A DNA stretch of 64,000 bases from an uncultured Clostridia bacterium (GCA_945915235.1 CAMEEX010000002.1:6-64005), one strand, 5' to 3'. Counted from the first letter of the stretch, positions 3,533-41,423 are shown. Made by a program: numbers and translations. The notes: generated by a model not told the origin, from the sequence alone.

Positions 3533-4195
3533 TCATATTATTAATTTCTTAATCTCCCTCAATATATCCCCATAAGGTCTCCCTTTGCCAAACAACACCG
3601 TGGTACCTAAAACAAATCCTCTGACTCCCTTAGGAGCAAATGTCTCAATCTTGTCCATTCCGCATGCGCCGTCCCAGTAAATCTCAAAGCCCATCTCGTC
3701 CTTAATCTTGAGAAGCCTGTCTATCTTCTTTCCGACATAAGGCAGGTACATCTGTCCCGCATTTCCCGGATTAACCGACATCACCAGAACCTTATCCACA
3801 ATCTGAAGCATCTCCATAACTGTCTCAATACTGGTTCCCGGATTAATGGCTATTCCCGGTATCATTCCGGCATCTATTATCTTCTGCAAGGTAGTAGATG
3901 GGTGATACTCTGCCTCAGGGTGAATATACACCGTATCACCTTTTCTTAAGTTCTTAAGAAAAAGCTCTATATGTGTGTTAGGGTGCTCTATCATAAGATG
4001 AACGTCTAGCGGCAGCTTGGTGGCTGAACGTATGTATTTCATATCATTTAATGACATCGCATAGTTAGGAACATAACGTCCGTCCATTATGTCAATATGA
4101 AAGGAATCAATGCCTCCTGCCTCTAAATCCCTTATCTCCTTTTCCAGATTGCCAAAATTGGCGCACATCATCGATGCGGTTAATTCAAAACTCAT
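3533..4195 (-). CDS. Ribulose-phosphate 3-epimerase family protein (Rpe/AlsE-like)
   Basis: MSFELTASMMCANFGNLEKEIRDLEAGGIDSFHIDIMDGRYVPN is the classic Rpe N-terminal pattern. I chose the start at M11 of the track ORF. Confidence 0.8.
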   Translation of the reverse strand: MSFELTASMMCANFGNLEKEIRDLEAGGIDSFHIDIMDGRYVPNYAMSLNDMKYIRSATKLPLDVHLMIEHPNTHIELFLKNLRKGDTVYIHPEAEYHPSTTLQKIIDAGMIPGIAINPGTSIETVMEMLQIVDKVLVMSVNPGNAGQMYLPYVGKKIDRLLKIKDEMGFEIYWDGACGMDKIETFAPKGVRGFVLGTTVLFGKGRPYGDILREIKKLII

Positions 4196-4225
4196 ATGTA
4201 TTCCTCCATGAATAGTATTTCTCAT

Positions 4226-5797
4226 TTATATTTTCAAGGCTTTGACTATCCTCCTGCAACTTTCATTGTCATGAAATTTGTGCATGATACCCGTCAGCCT
4301 GCGTCTTTTTTCTGCCTTATCGTCCTCGCCCCGGTATACTCTGTCTATAAACCCACAAAAATTCTCAAAATTGTATAACTCATCTCCCGGAAGCCACTCC
4401 AATATGTTATCGAACACAAAGCCCCTGCTGTCTCTATATTCTTCAACATCATCAAGTGTAAATGCTATCGGTCTGTCAAGCAGCATATAGTCAACCGCAG
4501 CCGAAGAATAATCACTTATAAGCGCGTCCGCACAGCCAAGAAGCTGGTTGATCTGAATATCGCTGTCAAACAAAGTATCATTATCAATCATAACCATATT
4601 CGACAGTTCAAAATTCATTATCTTTGTCTTGTCCTGAAAAGGGTGCAGTTTTACAAGCAGGACAATATTTCTTTCTTTGAGATATAAATTAAGCTCCTTG
4701 CATCTTTCCAAGGTATTCACAATCGGCAGACCCGTCTGATTCTGATATTCGTATTCATTGAGATTTTCAAGACCTGATTTAGCCATACGAAATGTAGGCA
4801 GCCAGAAAACATACTTATCCGCCGCCGGAAGCTCCAGGCGCGTCATGTAGTCATCTGATTTATCGAACAGCCAGTCCTGCTTGGCATATCCTGTCACAAG
4901 CATCTGATTTTCATTAAGTCCATATATTTCCCGGTGAATATCTGAGTACAAATCACTGATTACCGTAGTGTACTCATATCTTTTTTCACATCTGACAAAA
5001 TTAACCCTTGTCTTAAATCCACAGCCATGCCATAGCTGGACTCTGACCTGGTCCTTCCTGCTGTTCCTTGCAAAGCCGTACGCATCTGTAAAAAATATAT
5101 ACTTTGCAAGACACAATACCCTATAGTATTCGTCCCTCTTGTCCATATCCTCACTGTCAGCCCAATCATACCCGATAAAGGATACATTCCTATAATCTCT
5201 TGTATATCTGTAGTATTTACCGGCAGGCTGTGTGAAATCGTCGGGATTTTTTACAAGCCAGACAAGCTCATATTTATCATTATAATGGTTAGAAAGCATA
5301 TATTCAAATAATGCTCTTGCATTATCGGAAAAGTCCATTCCATTTACATAGGAAGCCGCATGCGGTCCACTGCGGAATAATATAATATTTTCCAGAGAAT
5401 GAATTTCATATTTTTTTCTGTATGACAAATCAATTTCTGTTTCACGGTTCGGAAAAACATAGATTGGAATATTATATTTTTCTTCATCAATATACTGCAA
5501 AAGTGTACTATATACCTCTTTAAAAAAATCATCGGTAATTACGAAAACCGTGTCATCAAGATTAACTTTATTCAGTGTATCAAATCCGCAGACTTCTATC
5601 TCATGCCCGTCAACATCATGCTTTCCGTGATTTCTTGCATTGGCATCCAACACTCCCCGAATGGAATTGTCATAACCATATTTTAAGATATACTGTTCTA
5701 AATACGATGGCGAATACCCTACAAAAAAGATACCTCTTCCCGATATATCTCCATAATTTTTATCCGTCAAAATTACAAGCTCATCTGTTTTCTCCAT
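4226..5797 (-). CDS. TagB/TagF-family CDP-alcohol (glycerol/ribitol) phosphotransferase with degenerate N-terminal Rossmann-like module
   Basis: LWHGCGFKTR, WLPTFR and ISDYSSAAVDYMLLDRPI are Glyphos_transf motifs. The N-terminus GIFFVGYSPSYLEQYILKYGYDNSIRGVLDAN...TVFVIT follows the module pattern. Confidence 0.8.
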   Translation of the reverse strand: MEKTDELVILTDKNYGDISGRGIFFVGYSPSYLEQYILKYGYDNSIRGVLDANARNHGKHDVDGHEIEVCGFDTLNKVNLDDTVFVITDDFFKEVYSTLLQYIDEEKYNIPIYVFPNRETEIDLSYRKKYEIHSLENIILFRSGPHAASYVNGMDFSDNARALFEYMLSNHYNDKYELVWLVKNPDDFTQPAGKYYRYTRDYRNVSFIGYDWADSEDMDKRDEYYRVLCLAKYIFFTDAYGFARNSRKDQVRVQLWHGCGFKTRVNFVRCEKRYEYTTVISDLYSDIHREIYGLNENQMLVTGYAKQDWLFDKSDDYMTRLELPAADKYVFWLPTFRMAKSGLENLNEYEYQNQTGLPIVNTLERCKELNLYLKERNIVLLVKLHPFQDKTKIMNFELSNMVMIDNDTLFDSDIQINQLLGCADALISDYSSAAVDYMLLDRPIAFTLDDVEEYRDSRGFVFDNILEWLPGDELYNFENFCGFIDRVYRGEDDKAEKRRRLTGIMHKFHDNESCRRIVKALKI

Positions 5798-5811
5798 CAG
5801 TCTCTTCCATC

Positions 5812-7011
5812 CTATATCCAGCCATCAGCCTCGGCAAAATCCCAGAAAATCTCCTGCTGTTCAAACCATAGCAGTTTATTTTCCGGCACTCCGCGCCCGG
5901 CTAATTCTCTTTTTATTTCTGCCGACTTTACCTTATTCTTTACGGTTATCAGAATGTAGTCATAATCTATCCCTGCCAAATCCCTAGACGAAGTAAAATC
6001 CGAATCGACACTATATACAATCCTAAAGGAAGTATCCATAACCGCAACAACGCTGCTTCTTCCGTCATTTAAAATCTGTTTTTTATAAATCTCTCCCAGC
6101 TCACCTGCCCCGAACAGAATAAGCTTGGAATTGTGCGGTATCTTTTCCAGATAATACGGCTTAATCCATAATAAATTTTTATTTTCAAAACCAAGCCTTG
6201 AATTAATCCCCTTATACAACAGCTCTGTTATGTATAACTCAGCCTGCATTCTCATCGATGATGTAAAATTCGGATGAGCATACATGGAAATAAAATGCTG
6301 ATATACCGAGTTGACTGCTGTCAGATAATTTGTATTAGGCTTATGAACCATTGAAGAATTGTTCTGCATATAGTGATAGTAGGCTTCCCGTGCGATAAAA
6401 ACAGTTTTACAATCCAACATATATCTTACCACACATAATTTATCTTCCGAATAGGATATGCTGTCCTCAATACAATTCTGTGCCACACTTAATAAATCCT
6501 TTTTAAACAGCTTGCAGCACAGGGAACCTCTTATGCCGACATCCTTTTTTTCAATATTATATATGACCTGCTCTCTAAGCCCGTCCATTCTTTCTTCATC
6601 ATAGAAGCCCTCAGGAACGGTATCATAGTGCTGCGTTATATAATTTCCCTCATATTTATAACCGCTTGATACAAGGTCCGCACCCGTCTCGGTCATATAT
6701 CCGTAAAGCCTCTCATACATATCGTCATCAATCCAGTCATCGCTGTCGACGTATCCTATGTACTCCGAGCCTGCGCCTGCGATACCTGCCTTTCTCGCAG
6801 ACACAAGCCCCCCATTAGGCTTGTCAATTATCTTTATTCTGCAATCCCTGTCCTGATATCTTCTCAGCATATCAAGGCTGTTGTCTGTGGAGCCATCATT
6901 CACGCATATTATCTCTATATCCTCAAGAGTCTGTCTTAAGACACTGTCCAGACATCTCTCCAGATATTCAGAGGTATTATATACCGGTATTATTATCGAA
7001 ACCTTTGTCAT
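5812..7011 (-). CDS. GT2 glycosyltransferase with C-terminal Rossmann-like module
   Basis: VSIIIPVYNTSEYLERCLDSVLRQTLEDIEIICVNDGSTDNS and DSDDW are GT-A motifs. The C-terminus carries KLILFGAGELGEIYKKQIL...YDYILITV. Confidence 0.8.
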   Translation of the reverse strand: MTKVSIIIPVYNTSEYLERCLDSVLRQTLEDIEIICVNDGSTDNSLDMLRRYQDRDCRIKIIDKPNGGLVSARKAGIAGAGSEYIGYVDSDDWIDDDMYERLYGYMTETGADLVSSGYKYEGNYITQHYDTVPEGFYDEERMDGLREQVIYNIEKKDVGIRGSLCCKLFKKDLLSVAQNCIEDSISYSEDKLCVVRYMLDCKTVFIAREAYYHYMQNNSSMVHKPNTNYLTAVNSVYQHFISMYAHPNFTSSMRMQAELYITELLYKGINSRLGFENKNLLWIKPYYLEKIPHNSKLILFGAGELGEIYKKQILNDGRSSVVAVMDTSFRIVYSVDSDFTSSRDLAGIDYDYILITVKNKVKSAEIKRELAGRGVPENKLLWFEQQEIFWDFAEADGWI

Positions 7012-7017: not shown

Positions 7018-8448
7018 TCACCTGTTTTTTATCTTTTCAAGAATAATCGCTGCTATTTTTTCTGATGCATGTCCATCATCATAATTTTTCATTTTCCGCA
7101 TGAACTCATGCAGCCTGTGCCTGTAGGCATCATAATCAAAATCAAGTATCTTCCCACATAACTCGCTGTTGGACATACTCCTTATATATGGCAGTTCCTC
7201 CATAGGAATATAGAAATTCCTGTCATTAATATATTGCTCATAATCTTTCTGATATAAAAATACAGGACGTTCCGTAAACGAAAAATCATACATACAACCT
7301 GAATAGTCGGTTATCAGAACATCTGTTGCCGCCAGCAGCTCCTCGAAATCATCATATTTATCAACCGCTATATACACATTCTCATCAAAAGAATATTCTA
7401 TATTTCTGATATCCGGGTGTTTGCTTACTGCACACACAAACCTTCTGTTAAATCTTTTTTCTAACGCCCTGAGCACTTCATTTATGTCCAGATCATAATT
7501 CTCCGTTCCAAAATCCTTGCGGAACGTAGGAGCATACAGCACCATTCCAACCTCATCAGGTAGATTGTAATACTTGAAAACCTTTTCCCTTATATTGCTT
7601 TTGCTCCAGAATACATCCTGCCTCGGCAGACCAACCTGCGATATCTCGCCGTCATACCAGAAGGATTTTCTATACAGCTCGGTGTAAAATTCACTTCCCG
7701 AGATAAACAAATCCGCCATTTTAGAATCATTTATCGCATTGGCTAGATAGGTTTCAGGCAGCTTTTCTATTATATCCTTCTCAACCCTTTTTATGGGCGC
7801 TGCTCCATGCCATGCCTGAATGTAATACTGTCCCTGCCTTTTACGGGTGTCAAATGTCTTTCTTGAATTATCCACCCATATATGTGCTGTCGCCAGCTCT
7901 TCGTAATACTCTCTCGTTCCAAGCTTTACCTGCCTGATTTCCTTTGGAAGGTTATTGCTCAAATCGGACACAACCCACACCAGATCGCACTCTTTTTTTG
8001 TGTCCGATTCCAATAGTTTTTGTGCAATGTATTTAGGATTACAGCCGTATCCCATGCCCTTCATATTCATAAAAAGAATTTTATTGTTCTGTATCGGCTT
8101 CCTGTACAGCTTGTCATAAAACCCATCTATCAACTGTTCCGGATTTACAAAATACACCCGTGAACACCCAAGCCCGTTCAGCTTATCACCGATTATCTGA
8201 TGAAGCACTCTCTGAACGGCAACTATGTACAGCGCATCAGGATAAATCGCGCTTACCTTATCAACAACCTCAACATCAATACCGAATTTCTCATTGGCAT
8301 TCCCGCCCATTTCCGAAACGACAAAGTTTCTTATTTTATCTGAAAAACCATTTTCCTCCAAATAAAAATAGAGAATATTTGAAATTGTCCCTGCGCCATA
8401 TATAACTATATTTTCTGTTTCCTGACAAAGCATGTCCAGACTTTCCAT
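7018..8448 (-). CDS. TagB/TagF-family CDP-alcohol phosphotransferase with N-terminal Rossmann-like module
   Basis: The N-terminus carries NIVIYGAGTISNILYFYLEENGF...ALYIVAV. AWHGAAPIKR, LYAPTFR and ITDYSGCMYDFSFTERPVFLY follow. The start could instead be M6 (8433). Confidence 0.8.
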   Translation of the reverse strand: MESLDMLCQETENIVIYGAGTISNILYFYLEENGFSDKIRNFVVSEMGGNANEKFGIDVEVVDKVSAIYPDALYIVAVQRVLHQIIGDKLNGLGCSRVYFVNPEQLIDGFYDKLYRKPIQNNKILFMNMKGMGYGCNPKYIAQKLLESDTKKECDLVWVVSDLSNNLPKEIRQVKLGTREYYEELATAHIWVDNSRKTFDTRKRQGQYYIQAWHGAAPIKRVEKDIIEKLPETYLANAINDSKMADLFISGSEFYTELYRKSFWYDGEISQVGLPRQDVFWSKSNIREKVFKYYNLPDEVGMVLYAPTFRKDFGTENYDLDINEVLRALEKRFNRRFVCAVSKHPDIRNIEYSFDENVYIAVDKYDDFEELLAATDVLITDYSGCMYDFSFTERPVFLYQKDYEQYINDRNFYIPMEELPYIRSMSNSELCGKILDFDYDAYRHRLHEFMRKMKNYDDGHASEKIAAIILEKIKNR

Positions 8449-8455: not shown

Positions 8456-8809
8456 TTAATTGCTCTCCCTTATAATATGAATTTTGTTGATGCCACAAGC
8501 CATCAGCTTCTCCGTCATCTGGCGCACACACATGCTGGCAACAAGATACACTGCATTCGGGTGCAGTCTAACCGCCTCCTCGACACTGTATATGTTCTTA
8601 TCCATAAGTATTCCTCCGACAATCGCTGCATTGCCGTCGCAAAAGCCTTTAACACTATCGGCGCGCCCTTTAAGCGAGAGCACCTCCCAACAATGCTTTC
8701 CCACTTTCCCGGCTCCATATATTATAATATCTTTTTCATCAAATATCTTTTTATCCTGCTCTATTGTTCCAATATAATCCACGTCAATCCCCCATATACT
8801 CTGAAACAC
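8456..8809 (-). CDS. Free-standing copy of the Rossmann-like module (possibly the frameshifted C-terminus of the upstream deacetylase)
   Basis: DIIIYGAGKVGKHCWEVLSLKGRADSVKGFCDGN...AVYLVAS. GTG start. It overlaps the 3' end of 8784-9692 by 26 nt, with a G5 run at the junction. Confidence 0.55.
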   Translation of the reverse strand: MFQSIWGIDVDYIGTIEQDKKIFDEKDIIIYGAGKVGKHCWEVLSLKGRADSVKGFCDGNAAIVGGILMDKNIYSVEEAVRLHPNAVYLVASMCVRQMTEKLMACGINKIHIIRESN

Positions 8810-9692
8810 ATTTTATAAAATCTTCCAACTCACAATCGTCAATGGCTACCCTTGGTATTTCATACAATGAGTCCCCCGTTCTCCAAACCTTTTTTACTGT
8901 CGTTGCCGATTTCTTTATCCCGTTATTCCTGCATATATCTAAAGTATCGCTATTATAATGAACTGCCGAACCAAATGGAAACGAAAACGTCTCCACACTT
9001 TTTCCTATATAATCGTTCAGACATCTGATGGATTTACCTATTTCATATTCCTGCTGTTCCCTCGTCTGGCTTCCAAGCGATATATGATTAACCGTGTGTG
9101 CCCCCAGTGTTATAAGCTCCGAATCAGAAAGTGCTTTCAGCTCCTCAATGCTGACCGGCAAATTCTCTTTTCTGGCAGTATTATCAATATCCGCCCACTT
9201 TCTCAACTGCTCAAACCACTCAAATGCAAGTCTGTAATCCGGCTCCATCTTCAATAACCAATGAAGAGTCTTTATAAGCTCCACTCTCTTTTCATATGTA
9301 TCAGTCTCCCATGTGTATGCATATAATTTATCTTCCAAAGTAAACTTGGCCGGATATTGTTTTTTTACGGTGAGCAGTCTGACAATCTCGTCCCACCAGT
9401 ACTCTTTACCGGAATTGACATACCCTGTACTTATAAAAATCGTTGCGGGAACCTGTGTCTTTTCAAGTATAGGCAAAGCATATATATAGTTATCAGCATA
9501 TCCATCATCGAATGTGACAACAACCGCATCGCGTTCTCCCTGCTCCCAATCGTCCTCAAATCTCAAAATGTCATATTTGCTTTTTATATAGTTCATCTGC
9601 TCTTCAAAATGTTCCGGGCTGACCGCAAGATTAAATATCTCATCCTTTACAGCATTAACTCTATGGTAAAGCAGGCAAAGTACCTTTTTCAT
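8784..9692 (-). CDS. Polysaccharide deacetylase (CE4 / NodB homology domain)
   Basis: VVVTFDDGYADNY and LGAHTVNH are NodB motifs. Confidence 0.8.
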   Translation of the reverse strand: MKKVLCLLYHRVNAVKDEIFNLAVSPEHFEEQMNYIKSKYDILRFEDDWEQGERDAVVVTFDDGYADNYIYALPILEKTQVPATIFISTGYVNSGKEYWWDEIVRLLTVKKQYPAKFTLEDKLYAYTWETDTYEKRVELIKTLHWLLKMEPDYRLAFEWFEQLRKWADIDNTARKENLPVSIEELKALSDSELITLGAHTVNHISLGSQTREQQEYEIGKSIRCLNDYIGKSVETFSFPFGSAVHYNSDTLDICRNNGIKKSATTVKKVWRTGDSLYEIPRVAIDDCELEDFIKCVSEYMGD

Positions 9693-9724: not shown

Positions 9725-10963
9725 TTACTTCCAGAATATAAAGTAATTATCTATCTTCCTTTCCTTAAGAATATTTTCAATTTGAACCCGAGGAGTCTCC
9801 TTGACAACGGTGACTATAATGCCATTATTCTCATCATCAGTATAATCTGATATGTTTATAACCGGAATTTTATCTATGTCCGATATATTTTTGCCCGAGG
9901 AAACGATAAATGCCTTTGGTTCAATTCCGTTTTTTCTCAGCCAGCTTAAGCAAAAACGTCCCGCATCACCTGCTCCATACAAATATATATTCTTCTTAGC
10001 GGATGCTGCTTCCAACATTCCCTGCAAATTCGCCGGCAGCTTCCTGACCTCCGCCAGTGTAGGAAACGGAAAAAACGCATGCAGACTGTGGAAAATTTCC
10101 GTCAGGCTGCTCTGCAAAAACAGATTCTGCTTCCGTGCGTATTCCGAAGACATAACCTCGCCTGTATCATATCCGGCATCCTGTGCAACATACGCGAAAA
10201 TCCGTTCCACTCCATAGCTTAAATAATCAGAATGTGCCAACTGCACATCATCAAAATCCTCGTATGTCCATGCATACCTAAACAGTTTTTCCAGTGCTGC
10301 CGTTCTGAACCACAGCGCTGTTCCAATGGTTATTGGCGGCTTCGTCTCCTGCAAATCACATTTCAATCCAAGCCTATCCGCCAAATTCTTTGTGGTCCTA
10401 AACGAACCATGCCACCCATACCCATACCATGTACAAAAATGCACCCCGATTGGAGCCGGAGGAGCAAGAACCCCCAGTTCCTTATTCTGCTCAAACAGCT
10501 CAATAATCTGTTGAATATACCCCGTGCCTCCGATTAAATTTCCCCATATATTTTCGACCCAGAGTGTCGTATCATCTTTGGTCTCAGCGGAGTGTTCCTT
10601 CTTGTCATGGACGAAGCAGACATACTCATAATCAGGAACTACCTGTCCGGCTGCAATCAGCAAGCCACTTATATCACGCCCCGTATTCGGTTTCATTATT
10701 ATATTTATATTGGTACGCTGTGTGTTTTTTATATAATCCTTTACCTTATCCCTTACGCTATCTAACGGTGTAACAATATACACATCTATTCCCGTATCAA
10801 TACAGCTTATATACTTAAAATAATTTTCCAGTGTGTCAAAATAATACAGATATAAAATTATTGCTGCTTTTCTTTTGGAGTAAGACTCTCTGACAGGCTT
10901 CATCTCATTCGCAAGAATAAAGCACAGCCCTTTTTCCTGTTTTATATCATAAACATTTTTCAT
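9725..10963 (-). CDS. RgpF-like (rhamnan synthesis protein F family) glycosyltransferase with C-terminal Rossmann-like module
   Basis: LYLYYFDTLENYF...IDVYIVT...NTGRDISGLL...FVHDKK resembles the RgpF pattern. The C-terminus carries NIYLYGAGDAGRFCLSWLRKNG. I set the start at ATG 10963 (GAGGT 7 nt upstream) rather than the track GTG at 11017. Confidence 0.65.
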   Translation of the reverse strand: MKNVYDIKQEKGLCFILANEMKPVRESYSKRKAAIILYLYYFDTLENYFKYISCIDTGIDVYIVTPLDSVRDKVKDYIKNTQRTNINIIMKPNTGRDISGLLIAAGQVVPDYEYVCFVHDKKEHSAETKDDTTLWVENIWGNLIGGTGYIQQIIELFEQNKELGVLAPPAPIGVHFCTWYGYGWHGSFRTTKNLADRLGLKCDLQETKPPITIGTALWFRTAALEKLFRYAWTYEDFDDVQLAHSDYLSYGVERIFAYVAQDAGYDTGEVMSSEYARKQNLFLQSSLTEIFHSLHAFFPFPTLAEVRKLPANLQGMLEAASAKKNIYLYGAGDAGRFCLSWLRKNGIEPKAFIVSSGKNISDIDKIPVINISDYTDDENNGIIVTVVKETPRVQIENILKERKIDNYFIFWK

Positions 10964-11010
10964 AATCTGTACCTCTATATCTATCAGCCCAATAAAATCT
11001 TCCGGAAAAC

Positions 11011-12126
11011 CTACCACATATCCTCAAGAATATGCTCCAGCGAATAAATCGGACATTTAACTCTCGTAGACATCTCAGAATAAATCTCGTGGAAATGCGT
11101 TACAGCAGTCACAATCATGGCATCTGCATTATCACCCTCGTATTTATCCGGTTTAATTACCGGTAAATCAGAATATGCATATTTATCAGACTTATCCAAA
11201 ATACAGGTTATCTTCATACCTGAGTGCTTTAACTCAGCTATCAAATGCGTTCCAAGTTCCCCATAGCCATATATCGCCACACTGTTAATACCTTGGCGTC
11301 TCAGATAATCTGCAACTCTTTTCTCCGCCTGAAGGAGTGCCAGCCATTCACTGTATATATACTTTATCGCACCGCCATAATCGTCCGCCTTAGGCACTCT
11401 AAGTGCTCCCTGTTCCGGCTTCAAGCCAAATTCCGCATATATTCTCTCGGTTTCCCTTGAATTAATTTTTACGGAATCCACCCTCTCGCTAAATCCACCA
11501 AGTGAATACATACTGACAGGAAAATCCAGCTTTTTCACCTTTATATTTGATAAAAGACAATCATAATACCATTTGAGCTCAGCCCTGAGCTTATAGGACA
11601 CATCAAACGGGTGAGCCAGCAGACATTCCCTTTTAGCAAAAATAGACTGATGATTCAGGTTCAGGGAATGTGTTTCAAGATACGGTCTCATATCCTCACC
11701 CTCAATATTTTCTATAGAAACAGGAACCTGTATATATTCATCCTTATTCGGAAATATGTACACGCACTTTCCATAGTACCAGTCCATTCCCGGTGCTTTG
11801 TCAATCTCGCAATGTATATCATAAAGGGTGTTTTTGTTCAGCAGAAAATCTCCGCTGTTGATAAAACATATATAATCACCCTTAGCTCTTCTGACAGCCC
11901 TATTCATCGCATCATATATGCCATTATCCTTTTCCGAATAAATGCTTATATCTAATTGGCTGTACTTCTCCTTATATTGCTTAACAATCTGCAAGGTATC
12001 GTCGTCAGAGCCACCGTCCTCAATAATATGCTCATAATCGGAAAATTCCTGATTATAGATTGACTCCAAGGTCTGAGCTATTCTTTTCTGTTCATTATAA
12101 CAAATTGTTATGATTGTAAAAAGCAC
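11011..12126 (-). CDS. GT2 glycosyltransferase with C-terminal Rossmann-like module
   Basis: FTIITICYNEQKRIAQTLESIYNQEFSDYEHIIEDGGSDDDT. The C-terminus carries SVAIYGYGELGTHLIAELKHSG...DAMIVTAV. GTG start with GAGGT upstream. Confidence 0.75.
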   Translation of the reverse strand: MLFTIITICYNEQKRIAQTLESIYNQEFSDYEHIIEDGGSDDDTLQIVKQYKEKYSQLDISIYSEKDNGIYDAMNRAVRRAKGDYICFINSGDFLLNKNTLYDIHCEIDKAPGMDWYYGKCVYIFPNKDEYIQVPVSIENIEGEDMRPYLETHSLNLNHQSIFAKRECLLAHPFDVSYKLRAELKWYYDCLLSNIKVKKLDFPVSMYSLGGFSERVDSVKINSRETERIYAEFGLKPEQGALRVPKADDYGGAIKYIYSEWLALLQAEKRVADYLRRQGINSVAIYGYGELGTHLIAELKHSGMKITCILDKSDKYAYSDLPVIKPDKYEGDNADAMIVTAVTHFHEIYSEMSTRVKCPIYSLEHILEDMW

Positions 12127-25581: not shown

Positions 25582-25615
25582 ATATGCCTCCAAAAATTTC
25601 CCAATTTATGTAATA

Positions 25616-27725: not shown

Positions 27726-27744
27726 TATGTACAACCTTCTATGT

Positions 27745-28908: not shown

Positions 28909-29434
28909 CTTTACTCATTTCTTCATCATACTCACATCTAAGGATTGAGTAAATTAGCAAATCTACAAATTTTCCATCTTTATAGTTTGCCTTTCGCTTT
29001 CTTCCTTCATATACAAATCCACATTTTTCGTATAAATGTATTGCCCTTTTGTTATCAGCCAAAACACATAATTCTACCCTTTGTAAATTCAAATTGTTAA
29101 ACGCGTGCCAAAGCATCCTATTTACAGCATAAGTTCCAGCTCCTTTATTTTGATTTTCTGAATCTCCAACCATAATTTGAAATTCTGCAGATTGATTTTG
29201 AAAATTAATAGATGTAAGACTTACAATTCCTAATATCTCGTCACAGGAATCATTAACAATTGCACATCTTACATTTTCCATTCGATTTGCCATATAATTA
29301 TTAAACCAATTCACGTCCACTTCATAATTAATAAATCTAAAAGGTGCCCCTAAATAACTTATTAGTTTTTCGTCATTCCTCCAGTTATTTATTTTATTTA
29401 AATCTCTTCTCTCTATTTCTCTCAGTCTATACAT
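28877..29434 (-). CDS. GNAT-family N-acetyltransferase
   Basis: The N-terminus is RLREIERRDLNKINNWRND. QNKGAGTYAV and HLYEKCGF are acetyl-CoA-binding motif A-like segments. Confidence 0.75.
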   Translation of the reverse strand: MYRLREIERRDLNKINNWRNDEKLISYLGAPFRFINYEVDVNWFNNYMANRMENVRCAIVNDSCDEILGIVSLTSINFQNQSAEFQIMVGDSENQNKGAGTYAVNRMLWHAFNNLNLQRVELCVLADNKRAIHLYEKCGFVYEGRKRKANYKDGKFVDLLIYSILRCEYDEEMSKGVENESIKEG

Positions 29435-30372: not shown

Positions 30373-31478
30373 TTCTTTTCCCCCATCACCCCAACTATTC
30401 TCTCCATCTTCTCCACCTCAAGTCCCTCATAAAACGGTATTGTCAGGACTCTGTCCGAGAGATTTCTGGCATTGTCAAGCTTGTCAAATCTGTATTTATT
30501 TCTGAAGCATGCCTGGTCTGCCGTAATCGGGTGGAAATACTTTCTTGCGTATATATTGTGCTCCCTTAACATATCATACAGTTCGTTTCTGCTCATTCCA
30601 TACTCATCATTTACCAAGATAGGGAAGTATGCGTAATTGCGGGTTGCTCCCTGACGCTGCTCAAGGAAGCCGATGCCCGGAATCTTGGAGAGCTGTTCCC
30701 TGTAGTACTCATAGCGTTCCTTTCTGTTTGCAAGCGCCTCATCAATATGCTTCAGATTGCACAATCCCATGATTGCACAGAACTCATTCATCTTAGCGTT
30801 AGCGCCGACGTCCGTCACCAGCTCCTCACCGTGAATTCCAAAGTTCTTGAGATTATAGAGCTTGTCATATATCTTGTGGTCAGAGAATGAAACCGCACCG
30901 CCCTCTATTGTATTGAACACCTTGGTTGCATGAAAGCTGAACACGGACGCATCTCCGTAGCAGCCTATTCCCTTCCCTTTGTATTCGACACCGAATGCAT
31001 GGGCTGCATCATATATCACCTTGAGATTGTACTTGTCGGCTATTCTCTGGATTTTCTCCACGTTGCATACATTTCCATAAACATGCACAGGTAGGATAGC
31101 CACTGTCTTTTCTGTGACAAGCTCCTCTATCTTACTCTCGTCAATCGTTCCGTCCTCCCAGTTCACATCGCAGAACACCGGTTTGAGGTGATTTCTGACA
31201 ATAGCGTGAGTCGTCGATATAAATGTGAACGGGGTCGTTATAACCTCACTTCCCTCAGGAAAGCCGAATGCCTGAATTGCAAGCTCAAGCGCCATATGAC
31301 CATTCACCATAAGCGACAGTCCCGGCACTCCAAGATAGTCTGTCAGCTTTGCCTCTAACTGCTTATGGTATGTTCCCATATTCGTGAGCCAGTGTGTGTC
31401 CCAAAGCGGCTTAATAGCCTCTATATATTCCTCGTATGATGGCATAGAGGATTGTGTAACTAGTATTCTGTCATCCAT
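30369..31478 (-). CDS. DegT/DnrJ/EryC1/StrS-family sugar aminotransferase
   Basis: VFSFHATKVFNTIEGGAV (PLP lysine) and TTPFTFISTTHA. The start is at ATG 31478 after AAAGGAAC. It overlaps the next gene by 4 nt (ATGA). Confidence 0.9.
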   Translation of the reverse strand: MDDRILVTQSSMPSYEEYIEAIKPLWDTHWLTNMGTYHKQLEAKLTDYLGVPGLSLMVNGHMALELAIQAFGFPEGSEVITTPFTFISTTHAIVRNHLKPVFCDVNWEDGTIDESKIEELVTEKTVAILPVHVYGNVCNVEKIQRIADKYNLKVIYDAAHAFGVEYKGKGIGCYGDASVFSFHATKVFNTIEGGAVSFSDHKIYDKLYNLKNFGIHGEELVTDVGANAKMNEFCAIMGLCNLKHIDEALANRKERYEYYREQLSKIPGIGFLEQRQGATRNYAYFPILVNDEYGMSRNELYDMLREHNIYARKYFHPITADQACFRNKYRFDKLDNARNLSDRVLTIPFYEGLEVEKMERIVGVMGEKK

Positions 31479-31523
31479 TATGTGTTCCTTTCCGGACCCC
31501 AACCTGAATGCATGATTTTCGCG

Positions 31524-31710: not shown

Positions 31711-31737
31711 TTATCGGCATTTTCGGTATTTTCTTAA
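31711..31737 (-). promoter_or_regulatory. sigma-28 (SigD/FliA)-like promoter inside the LicD-to-DegT intergenic region
   Basis: Minus strand reads TTAA (31737-31734), 15 nt, GCCGATAA (31718-31711). The -10 is an exact match to the SigD -10 consensus as I know it. The -35 is weaker (consensus TAAA). Confidence 0.4.
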
Positions 31738-36486: not shown

Positions 36487-36513
36487 ATATCGGTTAATTC
36501 TCTGTTATTATTA
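36487..36513 (-). promoter_or_regulatory. sigma-28 (SigD)-like promoter upstream of the LicD-paralog pair
   Basis: Minus strand reads TAAT (36513-36510), 15 nt, ACCGATAT (36494-36487). This is the same -10 octamer as the fliC promoter, about 30 nt upstream of ATG 36456. Confidence 0.4.
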
Positions 36514-36600: not shown

Positions 36601-38091
36601 ATGGACAACAAAAAAGATATTTTGATTGATTTTCTTATCCCGATTGCCGGCGAAGGCGGAGCCGAGCGCGTTATGAACGTGGTGCTCGAATATCTCAACA
36701 ATAACGGCTTCCATGCCCGTGTTGTTCAGCTTATATCTGACGGAAGCCGTCACTTTAACAGCAGCATTGATGTTTACCCCATTCTTATAAATCAAAGAGT
36801 CAATGACCTGAGCGAGCTCTCGGGTCTGTATACCGCATTTCTGTCACAGTACGGTGTCCCGGACATTGTTGTCGCCACTTCCTGGCCTTATCTGATACTG
36901 ACGGCGCGCAAGGCTCTCGAGCCATTTAACACTCCATGCAAAGTCTACTCCTGGCTGCACAACGCTTTAAGCGAATATTCACGTTACGGTGCCGGGGGAA
37001 TTGAATGTATGAGACTTGCCGACCACCACCTGTGCATCAGCAGACACGCCGCCGACATTCTTATCAAGGATAACCCCGATGTCAGCACCTCCATCACATT
37101 CAATCCTGTCGATATGAGCCACTATATTCCTCAGAAACAGTACCATTCTGACAGCAGAACGCTGCTCTATGTAGGACGTTTATCGCCGGAGAAACGTGTC
37201 GATATCATTCTACGAGGTCTTGCCTCCGTCAATATGCGGCAGCCCGGGCTGCCATGGAAGCTTCGTATAGTGGGCGACGGTGACGAGCGCCGTTCAATCA
37301 TAGAACTGATTGACGAACTGCGGCTCGGCGACTATGTCACCTTAACCGGCTGGCAGAGCAATCCTTGGCAATACTGCGATGATATCACAGCTCTTGTCGT
37401 TGCATCGGAATGTGAAGGCGGCCCCCTTGTCGCGGTTGAAGCTCTTGCCAACGGCATTCCCGTCATATCGACCCCCGTTGACGGAGTTATCAAGCTGATT
37501 ACGCCCGGAATAAACGGCTGGCTGTTCCCTCACAATGACCACGAAGCACTCGCTGATATCTTATGCGCCATCTCGGACAGAACTCTCCCTGCCATCAAGC
37601 CCTGTGCCTGCACAGAGAGCGTATCCTGTTACGAGCGCGACACGGCTCTTGCGAATTTCAAGAGGGCTCTTTATGACGGACTCGACAAAATATCAATCAT
37701 AGTCTACTGCTTCAATGCGGAAAAACAGCTTCGAAAATGTCTCGACAGCCTGCTGTCGCAGACGCTTACTCGGGCAGCCATGGAGTTTATCTGCGTGGAC
37801 AATCATTCCACTGATAACTCGCTTGACATACTGAGCGAGTACGAGCAAAAATACTCTGATATTTTTATGCTTATTCCGCTTTCCGAGAGCATACCGCCTG
37901 AACATGCCAAGGGTATCGCATTGGATTACTCAACCGGAAACTATATTACATATATGGACACCGAGGATTGTATTCCACCCACTCTGCTTGAAAATCTCTA
38001 TACCCACATAAAAATATACGGCGGCGACATAGAAGGCAGAATATACCAAAGGAGCTCTCTCCTTAACAGGGCTGACTACACAGCGGAATAA
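36601..38091 (+). CDS. Bifunctional-looking glycosyltransferase: GT4 (GT-B) domain + short C-terminal GT2 (GT-A) half-domain
   Basis: YVGRLSPEKRVD and ASECEGGPLVAVEALANGIPVISTPVDG are the GT4 EX7E region. ISIIVYCFNAEKQLRKCLDSLLSQTL...FICVDNHSTDNS...YMDTED is the GT2 N-terminal half. The protein ends ~135 aa after the GT2 domain starts. Confidence 0.8.
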   Translation: MDNKKDILIDFLIPIAGEGGAERVMNVVLEYLNNNGFHARVVQLISDGSRHFNSSIDVYPILINQRVNDLSELSGLYTAFLSQYGVPDIVVATSWPYLILTARKALEPFNTPCKVYSWLHNALSEYSRYGAGGIECMRLADHHLCISRHAADILIKDNPDVSTSITFNPVDMSHYIPQKQYHSDSRTLLYVGRLSPEKRVDIILRGLASVNMRQPGLPWKLRIVGDGDERRSIIELIDELRLGDYVTLTGWQSNPWQYCDDITALVVASECEGGPLVAVEALANGIPVISTPVDGVIKLITPGINGWLFPHNDHEALADILCAISDRTLPAIKPCACTESVSCYERDTALANFKRALYDGLDKISIIVYCFNAEKQLRKCLDSLLSQTLTRAAMEFICVDNHSTDNSLDILSEYEQKYSDIFMLIPLSESIPPEHAKGIALDYSTGNYITYMDTEDCIPPTLLENLYTHIKIYGGDIEGRIYQRSSLLNRADYTAE

Positions 38092-38097: not shown

Positions 38098-39273
38098 TTA
38101 CATACAGTCTGACAAAATCTCCTTCAATCTGACCTTATATGTATGATGCTTTTCAATCTCAGCGAGTGCGGCTGAGGCAATACGGCTGCGCTCCTGATCA
38201 TGCTCGAGATAATAGGCTGACAGCTCGAGTGCCTCTTCTATCGATGTATACTGTACAAAATGTTTTCCCGGCTCGAAATGTCTCAGCATATCCTGCTGGT
38301 AATTGGTGAGCAGAAATCCGCCTGAACCCATTATATCCATTGCTCTGAGCGGAATTCCCGTCCTTATGCTTCTCAATGATATATTAAGGTTAATTTTATA
38401 TGTATTGAATACAACCGGCATCTCGTTGAGGTAATCTATACTGCCCAGGTTTCGCGCCCCGGGAATTGAATAATCGGACTCAGTGAAGTAATCAATCTTA
38501 AATCCGCACCCGGCCATCGCACCTATAAGCCCTTTCCTGTCGATAAAGGCTATTCTCGGGCATATATAATAGTCCGCGTAGACCCTCGGCTTGCTTATAT
38601 AACTATTCTTCTCTATCTTGTACGGCATCACTTTGTCTATCTTTTCTAAGACTTCCCCTTCAAGACATTCCTCCAGAAAATTGCAGCCATACACCCGTCG
38701 CTGCGCCTCGACAAGAGCATCAAGGAACCCGGCAAGCTCCATATCCCTGCTCGTCTCAAACAGTCTCTCATAAAATCTGTTTCTGTTATTGTACATTGAA
38801 CCCACAAATTCGATATCGCCTCTGTCACCACATATTTTATTGCTTCTGTTCTTTGCTATGGTCCCGGCAATTCTCTCCGTATTGACTGCCAGAGGTATAT
38901 AATGTATCGTACTTACACCCTTCTTGGACAATTCATCAGCCATATAGCTGTCAAAGGTTCCGACGTAATTCACATTATTATTAACGGAGGCATCATATAC
39001 CTTCAGGAAAGGGCTGTCATAAATCCACGAAAAATACCGACAGCCTGTTCTCATACACGCCTGTGATATAAACGGATAATAATTAAAGGACACAACCAGC
39101 TCCGCCCTCGTCTCCCTTATCACAGCGTACAGGCTGTCGCTAAATTCCTGATATTCACCGCCAAACGCTTTCTCCGGTATCTCAATTACCTTCACCTCAT
39201 GTCCGAGCTGAAGAAGCGTCTCAAACATATCTATCGCCCCAAAACAGTTCCAGTTCGCATATACAATTCGCAT
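38098..39273 (-). CDS. CgeB-like glycosyltransferase (DUF3880-type N-terminus + Glyco_trans_1_2-like C-terminus)
   Basis: MRIVYANWNCFGAIDMFETLLQLGHEV. The C-terminus is GIPLRAMDIMGSGGFLLTNYQQDMLRHFEPGKHFVQYTSIEEALELSAYYLEHDQERSRIA. I set the start at ATG 39273 (AAAGGAAAT upstream). The track's longer form overlaps the divergent gene. Confidence 0.7.
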   Translation of the reverse strand: MRIVYANWNCFGAIDMFETLLQLGHEVKVIEIPEKAFGGEYQEFSDSLYAVIRETRAELVVSFNYYPFISQACMRTGCRYFSWIYDSPFLKVYDASVNNNVNYVGTFDSYMADELSKKGVSTIHYIPLAVNTERIAGTIAKNRSNKICGDRGDIEFVGSMYNNRNRFYERLFETSRDMELAGFLDALVEAQRRVYGCNFLEECLEGEVLEKIDKVMPYKIEKNSYISKPRVYADYYICPRIAFIDRKGLIGAMAGCGFKIDYFTESDYSIPGARNLGSIDYLNEMPVVFNTYKINLNISLRSIRTGIPLRAMDIMGSGGFLLTNYQQDMLRHFEPGKHFVQYTSIEEALELSAYYLEHDQERSRIASAALAEIEKHHTYKVRLKEILSDCM

Positions 39274-39343: not shown

Positions 39344-40510
39344 ATGAAAGTACTTTTTATACCAACCGCCAACTCAGTATCAGACCTCATGCTCGGTCTG
39401 ACCGAAATGGGATATGATGTGTCATATATTCCCAATTTTGCAGCCAACCCTGTAGCTCCCCTTGACACGGACAGAGCCGTCATCATCTCCGCGCTTGAAA
39501 CCGTCCGCCCAAGCTATGTATTCTCGTATCTTTTTATCCCTATGGTCGCTGAGATTACTCATTCCTACGGTATTCCTTACATATCATGGACTTACGACTC
39601 GCCGCTCACAAGCCTGTTCACTCCGCAGTTAGAATATGACAATAATTATGTATTTATATTCGATAGGGCACAGTATCTTCGTCTCAAGACCTCGACCAAT
39701 GCCAATGTATACCATCTCCCGCTGGGCGCATACATGACCCGCGTCGGCGCAATCGACATATCGGACGATGACGTCGCAAAATTCTCATCAGACATATCAT
39801 TTGTGGGGACGCTTTACGGAGACAACCCATACAATAAATATTCAGCATATCTTGATGAGACTGCCGGAACGGAGCTCAACAATTATCTTCTCGCAAATGC
39901 CCATAACTGGCTTCACACCAAGCCGTGGCCTTCCCTGTCAGAGCAGTCCACACATGCCATGCAACAGCTATTTGGAAATATGATTACAAACAACTCCTCT
40001 CTCAATGACAGCACTTATATAGCTCTATTATTTCTATCCAAAAAGCTTGCGGAGATAGACCGCATAACCTTGCTGAACGCGCTTGCCATGCAGCATCATG
40101 TAGACCTCTACACGGGAGACGGTGCTCACCCCGCGCTAAGCAATGTACATCAGCATGGACGTGTCAGCTACGAGAGTGATATGAGCAAGGTGTTCTACTG
40201 CTCCAAAATCAACCTCAATGTGACTCTTCCGTCCATAGAGACAGGAGTTCCACAGCGCGTGTTCGATATTATGGCATCAGGCGGTTTTTGTATAAGTAAC
40301 TATCAGGAGGAGATGGACGAGCTATTCACCGTCGGAAAGGATATAGAATGTTACAGAAGCGTTGATGAACTGCTTGATAAAGTAAATTATTATCTCACGC
40401 ATGACAACGAAAGGCTCAGAATTGCCATAAACGGATATAAATGCGTTGCTGAAAATCATACCTTAAATCATAGAATAAGTGAAATGTTCAATATAGTAAA
40501 AGGAAATTAG
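39344..40510 (+). CDS. CgeB-like glycosyltransferase, paralog of 38098-39273
   Basis: MKVLFIPTANSVSDLMLGLTEMGYDV. The C-terminus is GVPQRVFDIMASGGFCISNYQEEMDELFTVGKDIECYRSVDELLDKVNYYLTHDNERLRIA. AAGGAGG lies upstream. Confidence 0.7.
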   Translation: MKVLFIPTANSVSDLMLGLTEMGYDVSYIPNFAANPVAPLDTDRAVIISALETVRPSYVFSYLFIPMVAEITHSYGIPYISWTYDSPLTSLFTPQLEYDNNYVFIFDRAQYLRLKTSTNANVYHLPLGAYMTRVGAIDISDDDVAKFSSDISFVGTLYGDNPYNKYSAYLDETAGTELNNYLLANAHNWLHTKPWPSLSEQSTHAMQQLFGNMITNNSSLNDSTYIALLFLSKKLAEIDRITLLNALAMQHHVDLYTGDGAHPALSNVHQHGRVSYESDMSKVFYCSKINLNVTLPSIETGVPQRVFDIMASGGFCISNYQEEMDELFTVGKDIECYRSVDELLDKVNYYLTHDNERLRIAINGYKCVAENHTLNHRISEMFNIVKGN

Positions 40511-40553
40511 AGATATATTGTAATCTAAATCAGAATATAATAAAGCACAAAAT

Positions 40554-40579
40554 AAAGACCGGTGAAATCACCGGTCTTT
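40554..40579. terminator. Bidirectional rho-independent terminator between the CgeB-like gene and fliC
   Basis: GACCGGTG-AAAT-CACCGGTC stem-loop. The minus strand continues TTTATTTTGTG and the plus strand continues TTTACT. Confidence 0.75.
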
Positions 40580-40604
40580 ACTATGATAGCCTTCTTACTT
40601 GAGA

Positions 40605-41423
40605 TTAGCCAAGGATTGAAAGAACACCCTGTGTTGACTGATTAGCCTGTGCAAGCATAGACTGTCCAGCCTGAGCAAGAATGTTGTTCTTGCTGTAGCT
40701 AACCATCTCATCAGCCATATCAGTATCACGGATACGTGACTCAGCTGAAGATGTGTTCTCAGATGTTGTGTCAAGGTTAGCGATTGTGTGCTCAAGTCTG
40801 TTCTGGATAGCACCGAGCTTAGATCTCTGTGTAGATACACTCTCGATAGCCTTCTGAATAGCGCTCATTGTAACACCAGCTGTTGCGTTAGAGCTTACCT
40901 TAAGATTATCAGCTGATAAGCCGATAGCTGATGCAGACATGTTACTAATAGAGATAGACATTGTCTGCCCCTTAAGAGCACCGATCTGAAGAGACTTGTT
41001 CTTGAATGATCCAGTTAACAGGTTCTGAGTATTGAACTGTGTTGTAGACTGAATTCTGTCAAGCTCTTTCTTAAGCTCATCGATCTCATCCTTGATAGAG
41101 TTTCTATCAACTGTTGTGTTAGTATCGTTAGCAGCCTGCGTAGCGAGCTCGTTCATTCTCTGAAGAATGGAGTGTGCCTCGTTAAGAGCACCTTCTGCTG
41201 TCTGGATAAGAGATACGCCGTCAGCTGCGTTGTCAGATGCCTTATCAAGACCTCTGATCTGATATCTCATCTTCTCGGAAATTGAAAGACCAGCTGCGTC
41301 ATCGCCTGCTCTGTTAATTCTGTAACCTGAAGATAACTTCTCTGCTGACTTAGCCTGTGCGCTAGTTGTGATGCCTAACTGTCTGTTAGAGTTCATCGCT
41401 GTAAGATTGTGCTGTACTACCAT
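40605..41423 (-). CDS. fliC: Flagellin (short, 272 aa)
   Basis: The N-terminus is MVVQHNLTAMNSNRQLGITTSAQAKSAEKLSSGYRINRAGDDAAGLSISEKMR. The C-terminus is LAQAGQSMLAQANQSTQGVLSILG. The central segment is Ser/Thr-rich. Confidence 0.95.
   Translation of the reverse strand: MVVQHNLTAMNSNRQLGITTSAQAKSAEKLSSGYRINRAGDDAAGLSISEKMRYQIRGLDKASDNAADGVSLIQTAEGALNEAHSILQRMNELATQAANDTNTTVDRNSIKDEIDELKKELDRIQSTTQFNTQNLLTGSFKNKSLQIGALKGQTMSISISNMSASAIGLSADNLKVSSNATAGVTMSAIQKAIESVSTQRSKLGAIQNRLEHTIANLDTTSENTSSAESRIRDTDMADEMVSYSKNNILAQAGQSMLAQANQSTQGVLSILG

Follow-up and report, generated by a model that had tools for sequence, protein, structure and literature searches.

A candidate flagellin glycosylation island with teichoic-acid-type enzymes in an uncultured Lachnospiraceae bacterium of the human gut

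Introduction

In Clostridioides difficile, type A flagellin carries N-acetylglucosamine (GlcNAc) joined through a phosphate to N-methylthreonine, and this modification is installed by the TagF-like protein FtaD (CD0244) from a cytidine diphosphate (CDP) donor (PMC4441256, PMC10714395, bioRxiv 10.64898/2026.02.12.704994). FtaD moves the CDP-activated group onto GlcNAc-FliC (PMC10714395; bioRxiv 10.64898/2026.02.12.704994). A similar domain is present in FgtA of Pseudomonas aeruginosa, and a phosphodiester substituent has been inferred in that species (PMC4441256, PMC10714395, bioRxiv 10.64898/2026.02.12.704994). Here we describe a stretch of 64,000 nucleotides from an uncultured Clostridia bacterium (GCA_945915235.1 CAMEEX010000002.1:6-64005, hereafter the window), in which a long series of genes for transferases and sugar-modifying enzymes ends next to the flagellin gene fliC. 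This series is probably a flagellin glycosylation island.

Like the C. difficile type A locus (fgtA/cd0240 and ftaABCD/cd0241-0244) and the b-type locus of P. aeruginosa (PA1088-1091), the island is adjacent to fliC, is fully cytoplasmic, and combines a cytidylyltransferase with a TagF-like phosphotransferase. It is however far larger. The C. difficile locus has five genes and uses CDP-N-methylthreonine, whereas the island has about 34 genes, with CDP-choline and CDP-polyol as the predicted donors; it has two TagF-like proteins, three LicD-family proteins and many more glycosyltransferases, and it has no identified initiator of the FgtA type, which is a family 2 glycosyltransferase (GT2).

In Butyrivibrio proteoclasticus, exopolysaccharide loci flanking the flagellar cluster have been called flagellar glycosylation islands, and the flagella of Pseudobutyrivibrio are reported to be glycosylated (PMC2914790). 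The island resembles the B. proteoclasticus loci in that both consist of hypervariable genes for soluble sugar enzymes and transferases, often low in guanine plus cytosine (GC), beside or between flagellin genes (PMC2914790). Our literature search found nothing relevant on glycosylated flagellin of the Lachnospiraceae, and no paper that ties LicD, DUF3880 or CgeB-like proteins to flagellin.

The flagellar glycosylation islands of Clostridium botulinum and Campylobacter are also large, hypervariable, often low in GC and near flagellin genes, and are centred on the nonulosonic acids pseudaminic (Pse) and legionaminic (Leg) acid and on Maf. Pfam scans found no NeuB/Pse/Leg or Maf genes in the window, and the candidate flagellin-directed enzymes are here, unlike in those islands, GT-B proteins with the domains DUF3880 and Glyco_trans_1_2.

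The catalytic families, and the logic of CDP-alcohol donors, are those of the wall teichoic acid and phosphocholine pathways (TagF/TarL, TarIJ, LicABCD). Unlike the wall teichoic acid pathways, the island lacks TagO, TagA, TagB, TagGH, LCP, LicB and TarJ, and all of its proteins are soluble. The predicted use of an IspD-type protein together with the LicD superfamily, for polyol-phosphate on a protein O-glycan, also recalls the mammalian alpha-dystroglycan pathway (ISPD, fukutin and FKRP). This is a mechanistic analogy only: the domain of life, the compartment and the acceptor glycan all differ, and ribitol is here a predicted substrate. Finally, the sps and cge (cgeAB/cgeCDE) genes of Bacillus subtilis make the crust glycan in the cytoplasm with no lipid carrier, using CgeB, the TagF-like SpsB, the DegT-type SpsC and the GNAT-type SpsD. 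The context in the window is flagellar, and not sporulation as in B. subtilis.

Since flagellin islands, a TagF-like phosphodiester precedent and the Butyrivibrio loci are all known, the kind of system described here is a known one. What is new, in each case as a prediction, is the scale of the island, the LicD/FKRP-type enzymes, the fusions of LicD to a TagF-like fold, the CDP-choline and CDP-polyol donors, the candidate glycosyltransferase family, and a domain shared by many of the proteins. For flagellin glycans as such, only the involvement of polyol-phosphate, phosphocholine or LicD would be new.

A large glycan locus between two flagellin genes

The host is an uncultured member of the human-gut Lachnospiraceae. 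Among genomes, it is closest to 'Firmicutes bacterium CAG:882' and to a Hadza-derived metagenome-assembled genome, in which FliC is 83-85% identical. The original prediction described about 30 contiguous genes with about 16 transferases. A six-frame map of open reading frames (ORFs), with Pfam scans of ORFs of at least 100 aa, reproduced this inventory gene by gene. There are 29 genes at 3533-40510, and the 16 transferases comprise six GT2, one RgpF, one WbsX, two TagF-like (Glyphos_transf), three LicD, one GT4-GT2 fusion and two CgeB-like proteins. The precursor and tailoring genes encode Rpe, MnaA, an FkbM methyltransferase, a polysaccharide deacetylase, a radical S-adenosylmethionine (SAM) protein, an ATP-grasp ligase, two aminotransferases, a GNAT protein and an Asn-synthase-like protein. 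Most of the genes (26/29) form one tightly packed, co-directional block on the minus strand (3533-36456), after which come the GT4-GT2 fusion on the plus strand (36601..38091) and a divergent pair of CgeB-like (DUF3880 + Glyco_trans_1_2) genes. The distance from the last glycosyltransferase gene to fliC (40605..41423, minus strand) was measured as 94 nucleotides, where 95 had been given. The predicted acceptor FliC is, as had been noted, a short flagellin of 272 aa with a Ser/Thr-rich centre. This stretch was located at residues 155-187, and the exposed central segment (141-190) is 26% Ser/Thr.

The island had been thought to start at position 3533. This is wrong: the genes at 1-637, 856-1599 and 1577-3421 are also island genes, and about 2.9 kb more of the island lies beyond position 1. 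The extension is provided by a metagenome contig from the European Nucleotide Archive, L002, which is 99.97% identical to the window over an overlap of 3.7 kb and reaches 3765 nucleotides further left (L002 position = window position + 3765). Outward from the window edge, L002 carries the rest of an HTH-IspD gene, a DUF6492 gene, a third CgeB-like glycosyltransferase gene, and then a second flagellin gene at L002 1-882, of which the 5' 294 codons are present (Flagellin_N E = 4e-43). The N-terminal domain of the second flagellin is 53% identical to that of FliC, and its central region is different. Inspection of the sequence beyond position 1 for export or priming genes had been suggested; there are none on L002 (3.8 kb), which has glycan genes and the second flagellin gene instead. 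The island in window and contig together is thus about 43.5 kb long with about 34 genes, and it is flanked by flagellin genes at both ends, each of which has a CgeB-like gene adjacent to it. We note that the contigs of three independent assemblies all end less than 4 kb to the left of the window, and that only L002 extends into the second flagellin gene.

We conclude that the locus is probably a flagellin glycosylation island. The choice of flagellin as acceptor, already made in the original prediction, is supported by the second flagellin gene at the far end, by the linkage of CgeB-like genes to fliC in relatives, by the lack of membrane proteins in loci with orthologous TagF-like genes, and by promoter motifs resembling those for sigma-D.

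CgeB-like genes beside fliC in related bacteria

The CgeB-like gene nearest to fliC (39344..40510, plus strand) encodes a protein, CgeB388, whose AlphaFold model (predicted local distance difference test, pLDDT, 93.5) is a GT4-like GT-B glycosyltransferase. An alignment of its family led to 80 loci from species-representative genomes, which were searched by tblastn with all of the window proteins. By their labels, nearly all of these loci belong to the Lachnospiraceae or to related genera (Eubacterium, Roseburia, Butyrivibrio); for a few the label is a different or an uninformative one. Of the 80, 52 have a flagellin gene no more than 10 kb away, and in 49 the flagellin gene and the CgeB homologue are at most 1.5 kb apart, typically with a gap of about 130 nucleotides. 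The order of genes is conserved, and runs from variable glycan genes through two to four CgeB-like genes to fliC, a flgN-like gene, fliS, fliD, flaG, fliW, flgL and flgK. We therefore regard CgeB388 as a candidate flagellin-directed transferase. The other member of the pair in the window (38098..39273, minus strand) is an ORF that extends to 39486. Its most likely start is the ATG at 39273, giving a protein of 391 aa and a gene that does not overlap its neighbour.

In the two nearest relatives (L003 1-8600 and L004 1-8800), the same position is occupied by wholly different sets of soluble genes, and only the CgeB-like pair is kept. These sets include a GT2-TPR protein (in L003), two radical SAM/SPASM proteins, a split transketolase, WbqC and a methyltransferase. 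The architecture of the GT2-TPR protein resembles that of the Listeria flagellin transferase GmaR. An island content that differs wholly between close relatives is the pattern expected of a surface antigen under diversifying selection. LicD homologues are found in 15 of the 80 loci, 11 of which also have fliC. In those loci Rpe and an IspD-type cytidylyltransferase recur alongside LicD, and L075 adds two TagF-like genes.

Promoters

fliC has its own strong intrinsic terminator (40551..40582, minus strand; a 14-bp stem and a T run) and an exact sigma-D-type promoter, TAAA-N15-ACCGATAT (41526..41551, minus strand). A relaxed form of this motif, T[AT]A[AT]-N15-[GA]CCGATA, has three sites in the window, all of them intergenic and on the minus strand. 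One heads fliC. The second, TAAT-N15-ACCGATA, is at 36488..36513, 30 nucleotides upstream of the first LicD gene, and the third, TTAA-N15-GCCGATA, is at 31712..31737, in a gap of 278 nucleotides heading the operon that runs from DegT to Rpe. Both are sigma-D/sigma-28-like. The background rate, obtained from 1.48 Mb of related loci, is 0.005 expected per 300-nucleotide upstream window. The GT4-GT2 fusion and the CgeB-like genes appear to have sigma-70-like promoters, that of the fusion being at 36541-36569.

In other Lachnospiraceae the strict motif is found upstream of FliC genes (34/65) and FlaG genes (7/14). It is rare before glycan genes elsewhere, and hence the sigma-D support is specific to the locus in the window. 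The idea that a strict sigma-D motif before glycan genes is a general feature of the Lachnospiraceae was ruled out by these upstream counts.

A set of soluble enzymes

The prediction that the region 3533-40510 encodes no multi-pass membrane protein proved correct. A Kyte-Doolittle hydropathy scan over 19 residues found no transmembrane-type pattern in any of the island proteins, while the control, TrkH, gave 10 segments. The further claim, that there are no priming, flippase, polymerase, exporter or ligase genes, also holds: Pfam scans of the island and its left extension found no match to the WecA/WbaP, Wzx, Wzy, ABC2 or O-antigen ligase families.

The second TagF-like protein, TagF2 (7018..8448, minus strand; Glyphos_transf E = 3e-71), matches the catalytic domain of TagF (PDB 3l7i) with E = 3e-39, and the catalytic-type histidines H214 and H344 are invariant in its family. 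Against the NCBIfam equivalogs TarL, TarF and TarB, which have cut-offs of 550-1000 bits, the TagF-like proteins score only 63-114 bits, and they are therefore not orthologues of the wall enzymes. TagF2 was used as the probe for the low-GC part of the island, with flanks of 10 kb examined. Full-length homologues with at least 49% identity occur in 15 loci, where they have the soluble neighbours known from the window (RgpF, deacetylase, GT2, a second TagF-like protein, Rpe, IspD, LicD and DegT). No ORF with four or more hydrophobic segments is found in 14 of the 15; the exception is L086, in which an unrelated ABC transporter lies next to a two-component system. In contrast, TagF homologues with 35-44% identity, which lack the N-terminal domain of TagF2, are accompanied by one to seven multi-pass membrane ORFs in 28 of 29 loci (Fisher p = 1.9e-9). 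Such a scan is therefore able to pick out classical wall-polymer loci, and the orthogroup found in the window is not among them.

Predicted chemistry and proposed pathway

Two sets of genes suggest which activated groups might be used. The phosphocholine (lic) set is represented by the kinase LicA, the cytidylyltransferase LicC and three LicD-domain proteins. The first two are fused in a single protein (CTP:phosphocholine cytidylyltransferase and choline kinase; 1577..3421, plus strand; Pfam NTP_transf_3 and Choline_kinase). Its N-terminal half matches LicC of Streptococcus pneumoniae (1jyk) with E = 1e-33, and the rest matches choline kinases with E = 1e-9 to 1e-4; from these similarities, it probably makes CDP-choline. 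The putative CDP-ribitol set in the window comprises two IspD/TarI-like genes and a paralogue of ribulose-phosphate 3-epimerase (Rpe; 3533..4225, minus strand), which would supply ribulose 5-phosphate. The IspD/TarI-like protein encoded at 856..1599 (plus strand; Pfam IspD E = 6e-21) is a candidate CDP-polyol enzyme, the product probably being CDP-ribitol, and scores 98 bits against the NCBIfam ribitol-5-phosphate cytidylyltransferase subfamily, under its cut-off of 166 bits. The other gene is the 3' part of an HTH_3-IspD-type cytidylyltransferase gene (317 aa; 1..637, minus strand), with its start to the left of the window on L002.

The LicD domains match FKRP, a ribitol-phosphate transferase, both by sequence and by fold. 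One of the three proteins has a single domain (25616..26521, minus strand; Pfam LicD E = 3e-45) and is a candidate phosphocholine transferase. The other two are paralogues of 777 and 773 aa (31780-34113 and 34135-36456, minus strand), and belong to a large Lachnospiraceae family. In the model of the approximately 775-aa protein (pLDDT 89.9), an N-terminal LicD/FKRP-like domain, which superimposes on FKRP with a root-mean-square deviation of 3.4-3.8 Å, is followed by a helical linker and a C-terminal GT-B fold, for which the top structural match is TagF (3l7l, E = 4e-5). One homologue in this family (P0138) passes the Pfam Glyphos_transf threshold, with 27 bits, and it is only through this match and the predicted fold that the domain is tied to TagF. 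For the C-terminal 480 aa of the two window proteins there is no Pfam match, a profile search of PDB sequences was empty, and hhalign of the family profile against TagF2 gave nothing (probability 0.5). The catalytic histidines of TagF are found in only about half of the family, and so are not conserved; the C-terminal domain may therefore be non-catalytic, and we claim no activity for it. As judged from the model, the fusion of LicD to a TagF-like GT-B fold would be new.

The DegT, GNAT, ATP-grasp, second aminotransferase, radical SAM, Asn-synthase-like, FkbM, deacetylase and MnaA proteins point to sugars that may be aminated, acylated and methylated. MnaA is a UDP-GlcNAc 2-epimerase (14473..15597, minus strand; Pfam Epimerase_2 E = 4e-124), with uridine diphosphate N-acetylmannosamine (UDP-ManNAc) as its predicted product. 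The enzyme families support the phosphodiester chemistry put forward in the original prediction, here with CDP-choline and a CDP-polyol as donors, but the remark that it would be unusual for a flagellin glycan was overstated, in view of FtaD of C. difficile.

From homology and context we propose that the pathway runs as follows. Soluble enzymes would make the donors: CDP-choline from LicC-LicA and UDP-ManNAc from MnaA, and a CDP-polyol, probably CDP-ribitol, from Rpe and the IspD-like cytidylyltransferases, with a TarJ-type reductase supplied from elsewhere. DegT, GNAT, ATP-grasp and other tailoring enzymes would provide an aminated, acylated sugar. The CgeB-like GT-B enzymes beside each flagellin gene would start O-glycosylation of the unfolded flagellin in the cytoplasm, the GT2, RgpF, WbsX and GT4 enzymes would lengthen the glycan, and the TagF-like and LicD-family phosphotransferases would attach phosphodiester-linked groups (polyol-phosphate, phosphocholine or related). 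The modified flagellin would leave the cell through the flagellar export apparatus, which would account for the lack of genes for a lipid carrier, a flippase, a polymerase, an exporter and a ligase.

Alternative explanations

A number of points weigh against the reading as a flagellin glycosylation island. About 18 transferases is many, given that the glycan has to travel through the narrow channel by which flagellin is exported. Pfam scans of the window found neither Maf nor a GT2-TPR protein of the GmaR/FgtA type, and the candidate role of the CgeB-like enzymes as flagellin-directed transferases is drawn from gene neighbourhood only. The predicted ribitol-phosphate and phosphocholine assignments are incomplete, there being no TarJ-type (alcohol dehydrogenase, ADH) ribulose-5-phosphate reductase in the window and no LicB choline permease in the island, which has no membrane protein at all; an uptake gene would lie elsewhere. 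The sigma-D motifs of the two glycan operons have one mismatch each, and in other Lachnospiraceae the strict motif is found upstream of 1/71 CgeB, 0/21 LicD and 0/56 GT2 genes. Lastly, the low-GC block (4.2-25.6 kb), with 32-41% GC compared with 43-48% in the flagellar flank, is a mobile module. No flagellar gene was seen within 10 kb in 12 of the 15 TagF2-orthologous loci, and one such module ends beside tRNA-synthetase and Abi genes.

The first alternative is that two systems lie side by side, such that the genes close to fliC at about 25.6-40.5 kb, namely those for the CgeB-like, the GT4-GT2 and perhaps the LicD proteins, modify flagellin together with those of the left end, and the region from 4.2 to 25.6 kb is a separate mobile cassette. 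The acceptor of the cassette would be another cytoplasmic one, for example a different secreted protein or a soluble nucleotide-linked product. We consider this rather unlikely. It does account for the sharp split of the island in GC and in the spread of a shared domain. This is a Rossmann-like domain of about 100 aa with a YGAGxxG motif, present on 12-14 of the 18 proteins encoded at 4.2-25.6 kb (for example at 8113-8448, 8459-8767, 9728-10030, 20924-21226 and 24175-24504), and all copies in the island fall within this interval. It is N-terminal in TagF2 (residues 1-112) and FkbM, C-terminal in RgpF, six GT2, radical SAM and Asn-synthase-like proteins, and it also stands alone as a protein of 117 aa; the matches to WbsX and TagF1 are weak. 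Its density is 2.55 per 10 kb in the TagF2-orthologue loci, compared with 0.02 in the membrane-rich TagF loci and 0.07 near CgeB/fliC. Together with the scarcity of flagellar genes near most of the orthologous modules, this favours a separate cassette. However, the block runs in the same direction as the DegT-LicD genes and is tightly packed with them, it shares their candidate promoters, and no terminator is predicted in the gap at 31.5-31.8 kb. It lies between two flagellin genes, and three TagF2-orthologous modules directly adjoin flgM/flgN/flgK (L092, L157). Moreover, the islands are bigger than the 10-kb flanks, and the missing flagellar genes are therefore weak evidence. It is thus probable, but not secure, that the low-GC block belongs to the flagellin system, the link being weaker than for the genes close to fliC.

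The shared domain gives weak Pfam matches to PglD_N, CoA_binding and C2185-like_N, and a profile search of the PDB returned Rex (NAD-binding domain), a WbpM-like dehydrogenase (N-terminal domain) and WbaP (accessory domain). That it is a common docking or nucleotide-binding module is a speculative possibility. The GC content of the window (1-64000) is a mosaic, with 39-41% at 4-12 kb, 32-36% at 12-30 kb and 42-50% beyond 30 kb. Such a pattern fits cassettes that were acquired one after another; at the joints in the window there is no transposase, tRNA or Rfam element.

The second alternative, which is improbable, is a wall glycopolymer, either a wall teichoic acid or a secondary wall polysaccharide, that contains ribitol-phosphate and phosphocholine and is made on a lipid carrier, the genes for priming, for a flippase or ABC exporter and for an LCP ligase being elsewhere and the proximity to fliC a coincidence. 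The TagF-like, LicD, LicC-LicA, MnaA and RgpF proteins are classic enzymes of teichoic acid and rhamnan synthesis, the block is a mobile low-GC module, and in some Firmicutes tagO and the export genes lie apart from the other genes of the pathway. A wall polymer is nevertheless hard to reconcile with some 43 kb, including the sequence beyond the window, that encode no membrane protein, and with the finding of no TagO, TagA/WecG, TagB primase, TagGH or LCP in the window and its 3.8-kb extension. The orthologous loci are likewise membrane-free, and it is the distant TagF homologues that lie beside multi-pass membrane proteins. In addition, the island has a flagellin gene at each end and sigma-D-like promoters in front of its operons.

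Most improbable is a spore-surface glycan made in the cytoplasm of the mother cell, as by the crust genes of B. subtilis, in spite of a similar repertoire of soluble enzymes and the presence of Glyco_trans_1_2 (PF13524), the domain of B. subtilis CgeB. Roseburia and its relatives do have sporulation genes (PMC11913394). However, there is no sporulation gene in the window, the candidate promoters are of the sigma-D type, NCBIfam makes no CgeB-family assignment for the CgeB-like proteins, and the genes for these are found beside fliC in the majority of the 80 loci, in a conserved order with fliS, fliD and fliW. A capsule locus was also considered, and rated low.

Significance

If the locus does glycosylate flagellin, the exposed face of these short flagellins would be a strain-variable glycan, perhaps with phosphocholine or polyol-phosphate. 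The Lachnospiraceae flagellins CBir1, Fla-X and A4-Fla2 are dominant antigens in Crohn's disease and engage Toll-like receptor 5 in an unusual manner, and phosphocholine is a ligand of C-reactive protein and of natural antibodies. The reading of anti-flagellin immunity, and of 'silent' recognition in the gut, would then change. The logic of a CDP donor and a TagF-like enzyme, as in C. difficile, would extend to enzymes of the LicD/FKRP type whose substrate is a glycan on a bacterial protein, and the large, unstudied DUF3880 + Glyco_trans_1_2 family would become a source of candidate flagellin glycosyltransferases. As a practical rule, TagF/LicD loci with no membrane proteins should be seen as candidates for protein glycosylation, and not for a wall polymer.

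A bolder form of this proposal can be put forward tentatively. In gut Lachnospiraceae, such an island may be a lipid-free, wholly cytoplasmic production line that places a teichoic-acid-like glycan coat with ribitol-phosphate and/or phosphocholine on the short flagellins. The shared domain might act as a docking or nucleotide-handle module that replaces the membrane as organiser, and the LicD-(TagF-like GT-B) proteins might form a new class of protein-glycan phosphotransferases.

Other genes and minor observations

The remaining genes of the block, all on the minus strand, are as follows. Rpe is followed by the gene for the first TagF-like CDP-alcohol phosphotransferase, TagF1 (4226..5797; Pfam Glyphos_transf E = 4e-52), by a GT2 with a C-terminal shared domain (5812..7011), and by the second such phosphotransferase, TagF2. 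Next are the stand-alone shared domain (8456..8809; about 108-117 aa), the polysaccharide deacetylase family enzyme (8784..9692), the RgpF-type glycosyltransferase (9725..11017) and three GT2 (11011-12126, 12156-13370 and 13373-14470), the last four each with a C-terminal shared domain. Beyond MnaA lie the WbsX-type glycosyltransferase (15643-17133), the FkbM-type methyltransferase (17133-18260) and two GT2-type proteins (18281-19507 and 19521-20894), in which the C-terminal shared domain is PglD_N-like. The interval 20921..25593 encodes the Asn-synthase-like protein of 700 aa, a beta-propeller-like protein of 363 aa and the radical SAM protein, the first and last with a C-terminal shared domain. 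Between the single-domain LicD gene and the promoter gap, at 26514..31502, are genes for the ATP-grasp ligase, a class I/II aminotransferase, the GNAT protein, a 316-aa protein and the DegT-type sugar aminotransferase; the same tailoring genes co-occur in loci L093 and L094. Neither the 316-aa nor the 700-aa protein has solved-structure relatives by sequence. An Rfam scan of the window found no riboswitch or other RNA family.

Some related modules differ at the Rpe end. Those of L158 (16363-18891) and L159 (14266-16842) end with Rpe, IspD and a zinc-dependent ADH that is TarJ-like, which corresponds to the TarJ/TarI route from pentose phosphates to CDP-ribitol. At 3421-3533 of the window, the ADH gene is gone, and Rpe is followed by the convergent IspD-like gene and LicC-LicA fusion, which suggests a rearrangement or a switch of donor. 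In L157 (15017-19051), the TagF module is separated from flgM by genes for a GT11 fucosyltransferase, an Na/Ala symporter and a fusion of a TagD-like (CTP_transf_like) domain to GFO_IDH_MocA. Judging from the TagD-like fusion, other strains may use donors of the CDP-glycerol type.

The IspD/TarI-like gene contains an A7 tract (1065..1071, plus strand), which in another metagenome (L083, about 1265-1272) is A8. The resulting frameshift splits the cytidylyltransferase into two ORFs, and it is the sole difference over 13.4 kb (99.993% identity). This could be on/off variation by strand slippage, or an error of a low-coverage assembly. Phase-variation tracts of the Campylobacter kind are not seen, as the window lacks G/C runs of at least 7 and A/T runs of at least 11.

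On the other side of fliC is a late flagellar cluster (41581..52060, minus strand), which encodes an FlgN-like protein, FliS, FliD, FlaG, CsrA, FliW, FlgL, two FlgK paralogues, FlgN and FlgM, and which has a sigma-D-like motif at 51929-51954. The original prediction had called the flagellar side wholly late-class. This is true up to about 52 kb, but genes for the rod proteins FlgJ-like, FlgG and FlgF follow at 55.5-57.6 kb. The interval in between (52060-55443) has genes for a zinc-ribbon protein, a ComF-like protein and a RecD2 helicase, and mreB comes after the rod genes. Two FlgK-like paralogues, of 514 and 603 aa, are encoded side by side at 47664-51043. Genes for FlgN-like chaperones likewise occur twice, immediately upstream of fliC at 41581-42087 and again at 51067-51582. 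The two flagellins, taken together with the duplicated FlgK-like and FlgN-like genes, hint at a filament made of more than one type of subunit.

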